From assembly GCA_035532495.1 (NCBI GenBank), contig DATKQX010000082.1:4399-68398 (forward strand): 64,000 nucleotides of DNA, read 5' to 3'. Both the position numbers and the translations under genes were made by a program. The notes beneath the pieces are model-generated. The model ran no database searches. It was not told the DNA's origin and saw only the letters and a list, made by a program, of their open reading frames with translations. The DNA comes from Candidatus Saccharimonadales bacterium (GTDB lineage: Bacteria; Chloroflexota; Dormibacteria; Aeolococcales; Aeolococcaceae). Of the stretch, positions 36,790-41,307 are shown piece by piece (position 1 is the stretch's first letter; every line of letters starts with the position of its first letter).

Positions 36790-36839
36790 TTAGCACTCGG
36801 CTCGGCAGACTGCTAGCGGGTGGCGGCGGCGAGTGCTAA
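36790..36839. promoter_or_regulatory. CIRCE (HrcA operator) with atypical geometry
   Basis: TTAGCACTC sits at 36790-36798. After 9 nt comes GACTGCTAG (36808-36816, 7/9 match to GAGTGCTAA). A perfect GAGTGCTAA follows at 36831-36839, giving a 32-nt spacing. The element lies 46-95 nt upstream of groEL. Confidence 0.8.
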
Positions 36840-36901
36840 GGCGCTGGGGCACGCGGAGCGACAATGGAGTCAGCAGCCGTGGCCGCTACCGTCTCGTCAG
36901 C

Positions 36902-37324
36902 GTGACGTCTTCCGTGATCCGATACGGAGAACTGCCAGGCGTGCCGGTGGGTTCTGTCTTTTCAAGCCGACAAGCGCCTCGGGAAGCCGGCATGCATCGG
37001 CCTCTTCAGGCCGGCATCGACTTCGCCGCCGGCCAGGCCGCGTCGTCAGTCGTCATGTCCGGTGTCTACCCAGATGACGATCAAGGCGATGTCGTCATCT
37101 ACACAGGTCAGGGTGGGCTCCAGCCCGGAACGTCCAGGGCGATCGCGGATCAGAAGCCGATTCTCGGAAACGCGGGTTTGATTCGCTCCCGACACTTTGG
37201 CGTTCCGGTTCGGCTTGTCCGCAAGGTCGGGCTCACCGTGCAGCGTGAACGGCGCGCATCCCGATGGCGCGTTGCCCGCGGGCGCCTGCGGCACATGGCT
37301 GTCGCGGTCTTCGAGGAGGTCGAG
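36902..37324 (+). pseudogene. SRA/YDG (5-methylcytosine-reader) domain ORF, apparently truncated with no effector domain
   Basis: From GTG 36902: IRYGELPGVPVGSVFSSRQAPREAGMHRPLQAGIDF...SVVMSGVYPDDDQGDVVIYTGQGG...DQKPILGNAGLIRSRHFGVPVRLVRK matches SRA motif blocks 1-2. The YDG-type third block is absent. The frame has no stop until 37789, but beyond about 37325 it is antisense to a better-supported minus-strand gene. About one third of third positions are A/T (hand count over roughly 108 codons). Confidence 0.55.
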
Positions 37325-37720
37325 TCACATCTTGACCTTGCCGCGCAGACGCTCCACTGCCTCCGCAAGGTCCCACACCGTCTCGAGCGCACGGTTCAAC
37401 TCGGACGCCGTCGGCGGCAACTCATAGACGCGATGGTGGCAGGCACTGGAAAGGGAGTTCCACGTCAGCATCGCGCGCCCGCCCAGCTCTCGGTCGTTGA
37501 GCATGTCGCCGACGCACAGCAATTGACAGCGCGTCGAGGTTCGTTCCAGCCCGGGTGCGGTGGCCTGCCACAGCCGCACCATGGCAAGCTCCAGCCCCTG
37601 GCGCGCAAGCAGTGCCGCGGCTCGAGGCCACAGCCCTGCGGTCGTCGCATCGTCATCACGGATAAGATCACGCGCTGCGGACACGAGCGCATGCGCGTCC
37701 ACCACCGGCGCACCACGCAT
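37325..37720 (-). CDS. 131-aa all-helical protein, putative paralog of the ATPase C-terminal domain (HEPN/DUF4145-like features)
   Basis: Its ATG shares one nt with the ATPase stop (TGATG). Minus-frame third positions are much more G/C-rich than the overlapping plus frame. Motifs R40-Q-G-L-E44 and ACHH (94-96). Confidence 0.7.
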   Translation of the reverse strand: MRGAPVVDAHALVSAARDLIRDDDATTAGLWPRAAALLARQGLELAMVRLWQATAPGLERTSTRCQLLCVGDMLNDRELGGRAMLTWNSLSSACHHRVYELPPTASELNRALETVWDLAEAVERLRGKVKM

Positions 37721-40158
37721 CAGTGCGCCTCAAGCATCTTCGTGGTCAGCTGCTCGACGCTGCGGATGAACTCGCGCATGTCCCCGTAGACCTTCCCGCT
37801 GTGCGTCCCGCGGTTGCACTCCTTGACTGCATCGACGGCCCACGGGTGGTGCTTGAATAGATACGCCGCGACATCCCCGGCTCGGTCAGCATCGTGCAAC
37901 AACGCGAGCGCCAGCCACATGTTCAGCGTGGTCGGCTTCTGGAGCGTCGCCTCGACCTCGGCGTACGACCTGCCCTGACGCAGCAGATGCCGCGTCGCGG
38001 CACGTGACGAGGCCGCCTCGAGCGCCAGCCTACAGAACCCCGGCACGACACGGAGCGCCTCCGCGGGTAGATCTCTGCTGTTCGCAACAGCGAACGCATC
38101 GTCGATGTAGCGCTGCACGGGATCCTGGATCCGCCGCAGCTCCACGACCGATTGGTCACGCCGCACCACTTCGATCACCGTTGCCGCAATATCGAGCGCA
38201 CTCATCGCATCGGCCAGGCGCGTGTCATGTGTGAGGACGATCACCTGGCGCTCCTTCGCGGCGCGAGCGAGCACCTGCGCGAGCCCCGCGACCTTGGCCG
38301 GGTCCATCGCCTGTACCGGGTCGTCGATGACCACGAAGCGAAACGGCGACTCCGGCATCGACGCGCGCGGCAGAAACAGCGACAGAGCAAGGCAGTTGAG
38401 CTCACCCTGGCTCATGACGCCGAGCGCGGATCCATCCTCGCCATCGACCTTGACGTCGAGCGACAGACGGCGCTGTGTTTGCGCGCCGCGCAGGCGCAAC
38501 TCTCCAAGCGAGACGTTGCTGTCCTGGCGCAACTGCGTCCAGTTCTCCTGCACCGCGCGGGCGATGGGACGGAAACGCTCGTCGCGCAACTCGTCGTGCG
38601 CATCCTTCAGCCAGCGCTCGGCGTCCTTGAGTCGAGTGACCTCGTGCTCGGCCCCCTGCGCACGGCGTCCAAGCGGCAACCACAACGCAATGGCGTCCGC
38701 AGCGGGCCGCCAGGCTCGCTCCAATCGCTCGAGCTCGGCGGCTGCGGCGCGGCGAAGGTCGCCGACCGCTGCGATGAGCGGTGGTCCATACGTTTCGAGA
38801 TGGCTGGCCAAAGCGAGCGCGTCATCGTCCGCGGCCACGCCGGACCACTGCTCCCAGACCCGGACCGCTGGGTCGATGTCGATCCCCGCCCCCGCGCTGT
38901 CGCGAAGTGTTCGCAGCGGTGCGGTCACGAGCTGCCTCGCCTGCCGCATTGCGTTGTCGAGCATGGTGTGGGCCTTGCGCACCGCTTCGGCGTCCGCTCG
39001 GAGCGCCACCATCTCGTCGCGCGCCCGCACACGCCACTGATAGGTGAGGACCCCTTCGGAGCCGCAAACGGGGCACCGTTCACTCTCCGCGTGCGCATGC
39101 ATGTCGAGCGCCTGCTGGAGCAGCGACGCCACGTCGTGCGCTCGTCCCGCATCGGTGCTGCGCAATCGCTCAGCGGCGCCGTGCGCGTCGCGCAGCTCAG
39201 TGATCGCAATGTTGACGCGCTCGCGGTCCAGCACGGGCAGGCCGGCGAGGTCCCGGAGCTTGCGGAGAACGATGCTCTCGTCACTCTGTGCGTCACCACC
39301 GACGGTGCTCGCAACCACGCCCAGGTCCCACGCCTTGGACGCGAGCGCCGCGCGAACCACGTCGGCACGTTCATCTGTTGTCCGCTCGAGCAGCCCGCGC
39401 AGCTGCGGTACCGCATCGCGCGCCGCCTTGATATCGTGCTCGCGATCCAGGCGAGCCTTCTGCAACACCTGCTGCGCCGCAGCGAGATCACCGAGCCCCA
39501 GGATGCCGGCGACCGCGTCATAGAGCTTCGACTGCTCGCGGTCGAGCGCATGCTCGAGCTCGTTATGCGAAAGGAGCGGCGGGTAGCCCGCGAGTTGTTG
39601 CGTCCACCCGAGGGAATCCGGTGACGCCACCTTGCCGTCGACGGTCAGCGTCGAACCCTCGACGCCGTCGCCATCTTTCCAGACTCGCGCCACGTCGAGC
39701 GCCTGCCTGCGTCCGTCGATGGCGAAGCGCGCGGCCACCCGCGTATGCCGGTGATGCAGGTTCTGCCATCCGTCGCGCCACACCTTGACGCGCTGTTCCC
39801 AGCGCTGGTTGGTGCCCAGCAACACCATTTCGAGCGCTTCGGAGAACGACGACTTCCCCGAACCGTTGCGGCCGACGACCAATGTCAGTCCGGGTCCCGG
39901 ATCGATGTGCAGTGTCGCCGGTGGCCCGACGCCCCGAAAGCCCTCGACCTCGATGGCGGTGAGGTACGCCGCCGACGGCGCGGCCGCCGCGGCGATCTGC
40001 GTTGCGGACGCCGCCGCCGAACCCTCCTCACCCCGCAACGCCGCATCGACGGATGACGCACCCTGGAAGGCGGCGATGATGAGGTCGGCCGCGCCGGGCG
40101 CCGGTGGATCTGAGTCGATGCGGTCGACGACGAGGGCGAGCAGCGCGGTATCAGGCAT
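37720..40158 (-). CDS. SbcC/Rad50/RloC-like ABC ATPase with CxxC zinc hook and extra C-terminal helical domain
   Basis: 812 aa. Walker A GRNGSGKSS (aa 96-104), long helical insert with CPVCGS (aa 362-367), signature SQGELNCLALSLFL, Walker B FRFVVIDDP, H-loop VLTHD, then a helical tail of about 130 aa (aa ~683-812). Confidence 0.85.
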   Translation of the reverse strand: MPDTALLALVVDRIDSDPPAPGAADLIIAAFQGASSVDAALRGEEGSAAASATQIAAAAAPSAAYLTAIEVEGFRGVGPPATLHIDPGPGLTLVVGRNGSGKSSFSEALEMVLLGTNQRWEQRVKVWRDGWQNLHHRHTRVAARFAIDGRRQALDVARVWKDGDGVEGSTLTVDGKVASPDSLGWTQQLAGYPPLLSHNELEHALDREQSKLYDAVAGILGLGDLAAAQQVLQKARLDREHDIKAARDAVPQLRGLLERTTDERADVVRAALASKAWDLGVVASTVGGDAQSDESIVLRKLRDLAGLPVLDRERVNIAITELRDAHGAAERLRSTDAGRAHDVASLLQQALDMHAHAESERCPVCGSEGVLTYQWRVRARDEMVALRADAEAVRKAHTMLDNAMRQARQLVTAPLRTLRDSAGAGIDIDPAVRVWEQWSGVAADDDALALASHLETYGPPLIAAVGDLRRAAAAELERLERAWRPAADAIALWLPLGRRAQGAEHEVTRLKDAERWLKDAHDELRDERFRPIARAVQENWTQLRQDSNVSLGELRLRGAQTQRRLSLDVKVDGEDGSALGVMSQGELNCLALSLFLPRASMPESPFRFVVIDDPVQAMDPAKVAGLAQVLARAAKERQVIVLTHDTRLADAMSALDIAATVIEVVRRDQSVVELRRIQDPVQRYIDDAFAVANSRDLPAEALRVVPGFCRLALEAASSRAATRHLLRQGRSYAEVEATLQKPTTLNMWLALALLHDADRAGDVAAYLFKHHPWAVDAVKECNRGTHSGKVYGDMREFIRSVEQLTTKMLEAH

Positions 40159-40698: not shown

Positions 40699-41307
40699 GT
40701 GCCCGAACGCGACACCGCCGCTCCACCACTGACCCGCCGCTTCGCCACGGCGTTCGCGCTCGCCTGGGCCGTCCATGGGGATCAGTTCCGCAAGAAGACC
40801 GGCATTCCCTACATGGCGCACGTGATGTCGGTCTGCGCGCTCGCCATGGAGCACGGCGCCGACGAGGACGTCGCAATCGCCGCGCTCCTCCACGACACCG
40901 TCGAGGACTCCGATGACGGCGCCGCCACCCTCAGCGTCATTGAGGACCAGTTCGGGGAACGGGTCGCACGCATCGTGCTGGCGTGCAGCGATGCTGTCGC
41001 CGTTCCTGATCAACCCAAGCCCGACTGGCGCGAGCGGAAGGACCAATACCTCCATCATCTCGACGTCGACGCAGATGACGACGTCCTGCTCGTCTCGGCG
41101 TGCGACAAGGTCCACAACTCGAGCGCGATCCTCGGGGACCTCCGCAGCGAGGGCGACATCGTTTGGCAACGCTTCACGGTCTCGGACCCGGACCAGCAAC
41201 TCTGGTACTACACGCGCGTCGCGGAGATCCTGCAACGCAGACTGCCGGGACCGCTGACCGACGATCTCGGCCGCATCGTCGGAGCGATCGCCGCACTCGT
41301 TCCCTGA
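40699..41307 (+). CDS. stand-alone RelA/SpoT-type HD hydrolase (small alarmone hydrolase-like)
   Basis: AVHGDQFRKKTGIPYMAHVMSVCALAMEHGADEDVAIAALLHDTVEDS...FGERVARIV matches the (p)ppGpp-hydrolase HD domain. 202 aa with no synthetase domain. Confidence 0.75.
   Translation: MPERDTAAPPLTRRFATAFALAWAVHGDQFRKKTGIPYMAHVMSVCALAMEHGADEDVAIAALLHDTVEDSDDGAATLSVIEDQFGERVARIVLACSDAVAVPDQPKPDWRERKDQYLHHLDVDADDDVLLVSACDKVHNSSAILGDLRSEGDIVWQRFTVSDPDQQLWYYTRVAEILQRRLPGPLTDDLGRIVGAIAALVP

Follow-up and report, generated by a model that had tools for sequence, protein, structure and literature searches.

A two-gene module of a zinc-hook ATPase and a small predicted HEPN-fold protein resembles RloC in architecture and may encode a two-subunit RNase

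Two adjacent genes on the minus strand of a 64,000-nucleotide stretch of DNA from Candidatus Saccharimonadales bacterium (GenBank assembly GCA_035532495.1, contig DATKQX010000082.1, positions 4,399–68,398; hereafter the window) raise the question of whether the C-terminal domain (CTD) of an ABC ATPase and the small protein encoded downstream of it are two copies of one helical domain, and of what such a pair might do. A sequence-only reading had proposed that they are paralogous HEPN/DUF4145-like domains, that they recall the Arg-Glu-His triad of the anticodon nucleases PrrC and RloC, and that the free-standing copy, possibly inactive, acts as a built-in regulator or inhibitor or else contributes to a heterodimeric active site. 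We find that the module is a two-component variant of the RloC/PrrC kind and that its two helical domains are likely to be homologous, short of a demonstration, and we lean, if only somewhat, towards an RloC-like, ATPase-gated, two-subunit HEPN ribonuclease (RNase).

The two genes are obligately linked. Scanning species-representative genomes with an alignment of the CTD gave 153 relatives, from which 80 loci were kept, in Dormibacterota, Acidobacteriota (Vicinamibacterales), Chloroflexota, Gemmatimonadota and Actinomycetota. An open reading frame (ORF) of the small family directly follows the ATPase gene on the same strand in 86 of the 87 loci in which the contig continues, and the single exception stops at the contig edge. 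In the window the ATG of the small gene and the TGA of the ATPase gene share one base (TGATG), and the small gene is therefore expected to be translationally coupled to the ATPase gene. Judged from its sequence relatives, the small ORF is genuine: 306 close homologues were found, and searching 1.84 billion cluster representatives with a profile returned 948 small-family clusters (50% identity); among the best 150 of these, nearly all are free-standing proteins of 100–150 amino acids (aa).

The ATPase, for which the homologue search returned 117 proteins, matches the Pfam families SMC_N (2.6e-18), AAA_21 and AAA_23. Motif conservation was judged in 46 full-length homologues, in which the FVVIDDP segment (Walker B/D-loop) and the switch histidine of THD are conserved alongside the motifs listed in Table 1. 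The PADLOC models mad3, LmuB, HEC-01A, PDC-S06, AriA and GajA cover the ATPase head and coiled coil only, LmuB matching the core and coiled coil at 1.9e-21. By these profile matches, the ATPase appears nearest, over its head, to the defence ATPases mad3, LmuB, HEC-01A and PDC-S06.

The CTD (aa 670–812) gave no match in Pfam, NCBIfam, PADLOC or PHROGs, even at E ≤ 10, and the small protein gave no usable match in the same four collections. When the CTD, the small protein and four divergent homologues were compared with the Pfam HEPN clan (HEPN, DUF86 and DUF4145/PF13643), no match was obtained at E ≤ 10; the proposed likeness to DUF4145 is accordingly dropped, and that to HEPN proteins finds its support in the structural models described below and not in Pfam.

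Both families conserve a small set of polar residues. Among 201 CTD sequences, of which about 80 had been retrieved with the pattern PGFCRxA[LI]E and with which the 117 homologues found without that pattern agree, the positions R703, P706-G-F-C-R710, E714, G729, D756, R759, V763, G784 and H786 are 97–100% conserved. Conservation in the small family, assessed in 144 diverse members down to ~30% identity, is highest at R40, E44 and H95, followed by W31, R33, Q66, W87, L90, Y99 and P103; in an alignment of 86 sequences, also reaching 30% identity, E44 and H95 are invariant. The residues R703/R710/E714/H786 of the CTD and R33/R40/E44/H95 of the small protein are the best conserved of their own families, and they are kept in the distant Streptomyces and Nocardia copies of both proteins. 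The common pattern is thus R-x6-R-x3-E on the long helix of each domain and a distal histidine.

These results bear out much of the motif comparison on which the sequence-only reading was built. The positions that it gave for the R-x-x-L-E elements (R710–E714, nucleotides 38017–38031; R40–E44, nucleotides 37589–37603) are exact, the motif residues are conserved among the homologues of both proteins, and the additional upstream arginine extends the shared element beyond what had been noticed. The histidine cluster that it aligned, CNRGTH with ACHH, holds in that a histidine is conserved in both families, and needs a correction in the CTD, where the histidine is H786 (codon at nucleotides 37801–37803) and residue 785 is a threonine. 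The D-R-x-x-G turn described as common to both does not stand: in the small family D76 is conserved in 51%, R77 in 19% and G80 in 8% of members, and the CTD reads D-x-x-R-x-G, in another register.

AlphaFold models of the two domains were both of high confidence (small protein, pLDDT 89.2 and pTM 0.84; CTD, Table 1) and exhibit the same order of helices. Each begins with a short helix and the long helix carrying R-x6-R-x3-E, which is followed by two helices in the small protein versus four in the CTD; in each, the invariant histidine closes the penultimate helix, and a loop leads on to a long amphipathic terminal helix, in agreement with the terminal helix predicted from sequence. In total the CTD has seven helices and the small protein five. 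Foldseek comparison of the small-protein model with the Protein Data Bank (PDB) placed the HEPN proteins 3mfn, 1wwp, 4nqf, 2hsb, 3o10 and 7bxo on top (TM-score 0.54–0.67, probability 0.95–1.0, E 0.06–0.6), which points to a HEPN-like fold. For the CTD model the best matches were likewise HEPN toxins (7ae6, 8xeh, 7bxo, 1wwp and 1wty), and these matches are weak (TM-score 0.3–0.4, probability ≤0.38). The templates 1wwp, 7bxo/6m6u, 8xeh and 1wty are matched by both models.

Whether the two domains descend from one ancestor was examined by direct comparison, and the statistical support obtained is marginal. BLASTP aligned no part of the CTD with the small protein at E ≤ 100, and a sequence search of the PDB with the CTD and small-family profiles found nothing. 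HHalign results varied with the depth of the alignments: P was 0.15–0.18 with shallow, lineage-restricted alignments, 0.0016–0.012 (probability 4–16%) with a diverse small-family alignment (Neff ~6.3), and 0.0005 (probability 31–32%) with the subset of CTDs from outside Dormibacterota; with AlphaFold secondary-structure lines added the probability was 7–20%, and over all runs it ranged from 0.4 to 32%. A reversed small-family profile gave P = 0.35–0.45 as a control. In 150 shuffles of 8-column blocks the mean score was 18.6 (standard deviation 2.4), and the real score of 24.1 was reached by 2 of the 150; the block R-x-A-L-E therefore carries most of the HHalign signal. All HHalign runs nevertheless returned an identical, colinear, full-length register of 105–112 columns with two insertions in the CTD, pairing R703 with R33, R710 with R40, E714 with E44 and H786 with H95; it is the register of the by-eye alignment in the sequence-only reading. 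A hidden Markov model (HMM) of the small family detected divergent CTDs among the 201 at E 0.003–0.03 and found nothing better than E 1.6 among RloC tails; the CTD and the small family each score higher against one another than against genuine RloC domains.

The claim of paralogy thus survives in part, in that the folds do not differ and the register is constant, with an HHalign result that is neither null nor significant. Distant paralogy is the most likely relation between the CTD and the small protein, with a gain of two short inserted helices in the fused copy. A less probable account, which still deserves to be taken seriously, sees in the small protein a true HEPN-fold partner of the ATPase (an effector, a regulator or an antitoxin-like subunit) and no paralogue of the CTD, the shared R-x3-E…His pattern having arisen by convergence or chance. 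The low HHalign probabilities, the high scores of shuffles that keep the R-x-A-L-E block, the two extra helices and weak HEPN match of the CTD, and the poor conservation of D-R-x-x-G would all fit this account. It is opposed by the single full-length register obtained from all alignment builds, by the placement of R, R, E and H at equivalent positions of equivalent helices, by the common HEPN templates, and by the weak detection of CTDs, and not of RloC tails, with the small-family HMM.

Two metagenome proteins, P0382 (284 aa) and P0293 (381 aa), are single ORFs that encode a complete CTD continued in the same frame by a small-family domain. If they are natural fusions, they would count as Rosetta-stone evidence for joint action of the two domains; the alternative is that they are artefacts of frameshifts or of assembly on short contigs.

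The architecture of the ATPase invites comparison with RloC. RloC is a wobble-nucleotide-excising anticodon nuclease of 658–897 aa with ABC motifs, a coiled coil with a CXXC hook, and a C-terminal Arg-x3-Glu-x36-52-His motif in which Ser often precedes the His; mutation of the Arg/Glu/His motif abolishes the anticodon-nuclease activity (Davidov & Kaufmann 2008, PMC2610378), in agreement with the triad named in the sequence-only reading. The RloC tail has been classed as HEPN (PMC3710099). Like RloC, the ATPase is ~800 aa long and combines ABC ATPase motifs with a coiled-coil insert that bears a CXXC zinc hook (CPVC, aa 362–365) and with a C-terminal helical domain with Arg-x3-Glu…His, and it is linked in some cases to type I/III restriction-modification (R-M) loci. 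The spacing of the CTD motif, R710-x3-E714-x71-H786 with Thr or Ala before the His, lies outside the x36-52 of RloC, whereas the Glu-His spacing of x50 in the small protein lies within it.

For a direct comparison, a genuine RloC was retrieved from the same phylum (L084, 1414–3810, minus strand). This protein matches AAA_13, the PrrC/RloC family, with 546 bits and contains a CRFC hook, ARRLVE-x39-SH and R-x6-H, and no small-family ORF was found in the 1.4 kb on either side of it. The ATPase of the window matches AAA_13 with 31.6 bits, under the cut-off of 36. AAA_13 proteins are scarce in this group, occurring in 2 of 151 sampled genomes of the phylum, and the window's own genome has none. Against the tails of 115 relatives that JGI names 'wobble nucleotide-excising tRNase', HHalign gave P = 0.61 for the CTD and 0.088 for the divergent subset; overall, with a third value of 0.32, P for the CTD and the small protein was 0.09–0.61. 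The R-x6-[S]H motif of RloC is missing. In the CTD, R783, three residues before H786, is 74% conserved, and no conserved Arg lies 5–7 residues before H786; in the small protein, too, no conserved Arg lies 5–7 residues before the His, and the Rx4HxY motif is not present because a conserved Leu (L90) occupies the position of the Arg. The module is therefore RloC-like in architecture and not a member of RloC: the spacing differs, the Rx4-6H arginine is missing, AAA_13 stays below threshold and a second gene is obligate.

Similar partial likenesses connect the module to other systems. Like the ATPase of the module, PrrC joins an ABC ATPase to a C-terminal domain with an Arg-Glu-His triad (R320/E324/H356), in PrrC a nuclease of HEPN type. 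PrrC is embedded in a type Ic R-M locus and, to our knowledge, has no zinc hook, no coiled coil and no small partner. The PADLOC PrrC model matches the ATPase part only (E 7e-4), and a search of the window's own genome with the PrrC model found nothing. MNT-HEPN (HepT/MntA) toxins (7bxo, 7ae6 and 1wwp) are the best structural matches of both models and, like the small protein, have ~130 aa with the His near residue 95–105; unlike them, the module lacks an MNT nucleotidyltransferase partner and has no match to Pfam HEPN or DUF86. With Lamassu the module shares the LmuB match and a common logic, in which a small accessory subunit accompanies an SMC-like sensor and the toxic effector under its control. 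In contrast to Lamassu, the module has its effector-like domain on the same polypeptide as the ATPase, its small protein is predicted to be HEPN-fold and not LmuC-like, and no LmuA-type gene is present in the window or in related loci. Fusions of an ABC ATPase to a C-terminal HEPN domain have been described in APECO1_4465 and ERFG_01251, the HEPN domain of the latter being of the MNT-associated type (Anantharaman et al. 2013, PMC3710099). By their descriptions these proteins are set apart from the present module, since they keep Rx4-6H and no paired free HEPN gene was described for them.

HEPN RNases act as dimers in which the catalytic residues of two domains face each other across the interface. 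Because HEPN RNases are dimeric and the two copies always occur together, a hetero-oligomeric nuclease is the simplest arrangement: the fused CTD and the free small protein would pair to form, or complete, an RNase site, and the zinc-hook ATPase would gate this site, as in RloC. By the RloC model, the Rad50-like region would sense DNA or DNA damage and unleash a tRNA or RNA nuclease, and translation would be shut down, with abortive infection or a stress switch as the outcome. The arginine, glutamate and histidine are the most conserved residues of the free copy, in a family of about 950 clusters, and the suggestion that this copy is inactive or an inhibitor is therefore less likely; more likely, the two copies make up a composite or paired active site under the control of the zinc-hook ATPase. 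A broader proposal, which we hold to be possible rather than probable, is that the module represents a widespread, unnamed two-subunit RloC-like class (~950 clusters, at least five phyla), in which a heteromeric HEPN RNase would combine a half-site from the ATPase with a half-site from its free paralogue, would use a non-canonical R-x3-E…H motif lacking the Rx4-6H arginine, and would be controlled by a DNA-sensing switch.

Several observations weigh against a gated two-subunit HEPN RNase. No comparison of the two domains reaches conventional significance, and most of their HHalign score comes from a single block; the structural match of the modelled CTD to HEPN proteins is weak; neither domain shows profile similarity to genuine RloC nuclease domains, and neither carries the canonical HEPN Rx4-6H arginine, which genuine RloC has as R-x6-H. 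In addition, none of the 21 genomes sampled from the genus lacks the pair, and its position near groEL is syntenic, which is unusual for a defence gene.

The last point also fits a quite different explanation, namely that the pair is a housekeeping machine for DNA repair or chromosome maintenance, with a Rad50/SbcC-like ATPase in which the place of Mre11/SbcD is taken by the helical tail and the small subunit, as parts that are non-catalytic or bind DNA and have no RNase activity. The position of the module between the HD hydrolase gene and groEL throughout the lineage, the double-strand-break-repair Gene Ontology (GO) term that RefSeq gives to the Streptomyces homologue of the ATPase, and the missing Rx4-6H arginine are consistent with such a role. 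Beyond the genus, however, the distribution is patchy, yet it spans five phyla: the module occurs in 31 of 201 genomes and 9 of 57 genera of the window's class, in about one-third of the other sampled genomes of the family and in almost none further out.

The gene neighbourhoods in other lineages also argue against housekeeping, as they are of the defence-island kind and include GmrSD, a type III-like methylase/Res pair with McrBC, Mrr, and Cas3 with GSU0053/54. On plasmid pM92 of Streptomyces sp. M92 (L090, 81820–84695), the pair, an 819-aa ATPase with a CPVC hook and a 138-aa protein named 'AAA family ATPase' and 'hypothetical protein' in RefSeq, is flanked by NB-ARC/TPR (NLR-like) genes and by genes for a 1185-aa AAA ATPase and a Ser/Thr kinase. 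Nocardia farcinica NCTC11134 carries the pair too, and both strains are cultured carriers. No relative of the pair was found on viral contigs. Together with the affinity of the ATPase head to defence ATPases and the strictly conserved polar R/E/H set, which looks catalytic, these contexts make the housekeeping explanation improbable; in the genus in which the module is fixed and syntenic, it may nonetheless have been domesticated for a function in stress or repair.

Weakest is a reading in which the free copy has lost catalysis and serves as a decoy: as a built-in inhibitor or antitoxin, it would occupy the dimer interface of the fused domain until released by the ATPase. We consider this very unlikely. 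The tight TGATG coupling and 1:1 linkage are typical of toxin–antitoxin-like pairs, and partners commonly keep HEPN toxins in an inactive state (PMC3710099), but a plug would not need R40, E44 and H95, and the x50 spacing of the free copy is closer to the RloC catalytic motif than the x71 of the fused domain.

Table 1 Features of the ATPase–small protein module in the window.
Feature	Position	Strand	Description
ATPase gene	37720–40158	−	812 aa; Rad50/LmuB-like ABC ATPase with coiled-coil/zinc-hook insert and C-terminal helical domain
Walker A, GRNGSGKS (aa 96–103)	39850–39873	−	At least 90% conserved in the 46 full-length homologues
Zinc hook, CPVC (aa 362–365)	39064–39075	−	In the helical insert; C-P-V-C at least 90% conserved; present too in the Streptomyces pM92 homologue
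ABC signature, MSQGE (aa 582–586), and Walker B, FVVIDD (aa 608–613)	38320–38415	−	Conserved
CTD (aa 670–812, 143 aa)	37723–38151	−	Predicted seven-helix bundle, HEPN-like; AlphaFold pLDDT 90.2, pTM 0.85
R703-x6-R710-x3-E714 (RVVPGFCRLALE)	38017–38052	−	Long helix of the CTD; R703 97%, PGFCR ~100%, E714 ~100%
N782-R-G784-T-H786	37801–37815	−	End of the penultimate helix of the CTD; N 89%, G 98%, H 99%
Small gene	37325–37720	−	131-aa free-standing protein, HEPN fold predicted by modelling; immediately downstream of the ATPase gene
R33-x6-R40-x3-E44 (RAAALLARQGLE)	37589–37624	−	Long helix of the small protein; R33 90%, R40 97%, E44 98%
C94-H95-H96-x2-Y99	37424–37441	−	After the penultimate helix of the small protein; C94 77%, H95 96%, H96 60%, Y99 87%

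The surroundings of the pair in the window include several further genes. Upstream of the ATPase gene, an ORF with two transmembrane helices (40151–~40633, minus strand) terminates 8 nucleotides inside the ATPase start and is 59–79% identical among same-genus loci. A three-gene cassette including this ORF was considered and rejected, as the ORF is conserved in this lineage only; in the related locus L001 its homologue lies beyond the HD gene, and other phyla have unrelated genes at its position. The HD gene itself encodes a stand-alone HD_4 (RelA/SpoT-type) hydrolase (40699–41307, plus strand), is divergent from the cassette and is retained as a neighbour in L001.

On the other side, a remnant of a SAD/SRA domain, a 5-methylcytosine reader, is encoded at 36833–37250 on the plus strand (Pfam SAD_SRA 1e-25, profile positions 2–106 of 148). 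The remnant is convergent to the small gene, abuts it and has no nuclease domain. It forms the first ~130 aa of a 318-aa ORF (36833–37789, plus strand), the remainder of which lies antisense to the small gene and is probably not genuine. At this position, L001 and other relatives have different genes (a 425-aa ORF, YbjN-like). In a divergent homologous locus (L086, 1–13700), the pair begins exactly at the end of a 1017-aa ResIII gene, with an 888-aa N6_N4 methylase upstream and McrBC after it, an arrangement reminiscent of RloC, which is occasionally found linked to R-M loci of type I/III.

If the module is indeed an ATPase-gated, two-subunit HEPN RNase, it would be an abundant immune or stress module of soil bacteria that no annotation resource names. 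The principle of RloC and PrrC, by which an ATPase detects trouble with DNA and an RNase stops translation, would then extend to a split, two-protein nuclease, and a variant of the HEPN active site that dispenses with the hallmark arginine would be added to those described. With cultured carriers in existence, the pair would also provide a natural system in which to study how HEPN dimerisation is gated.

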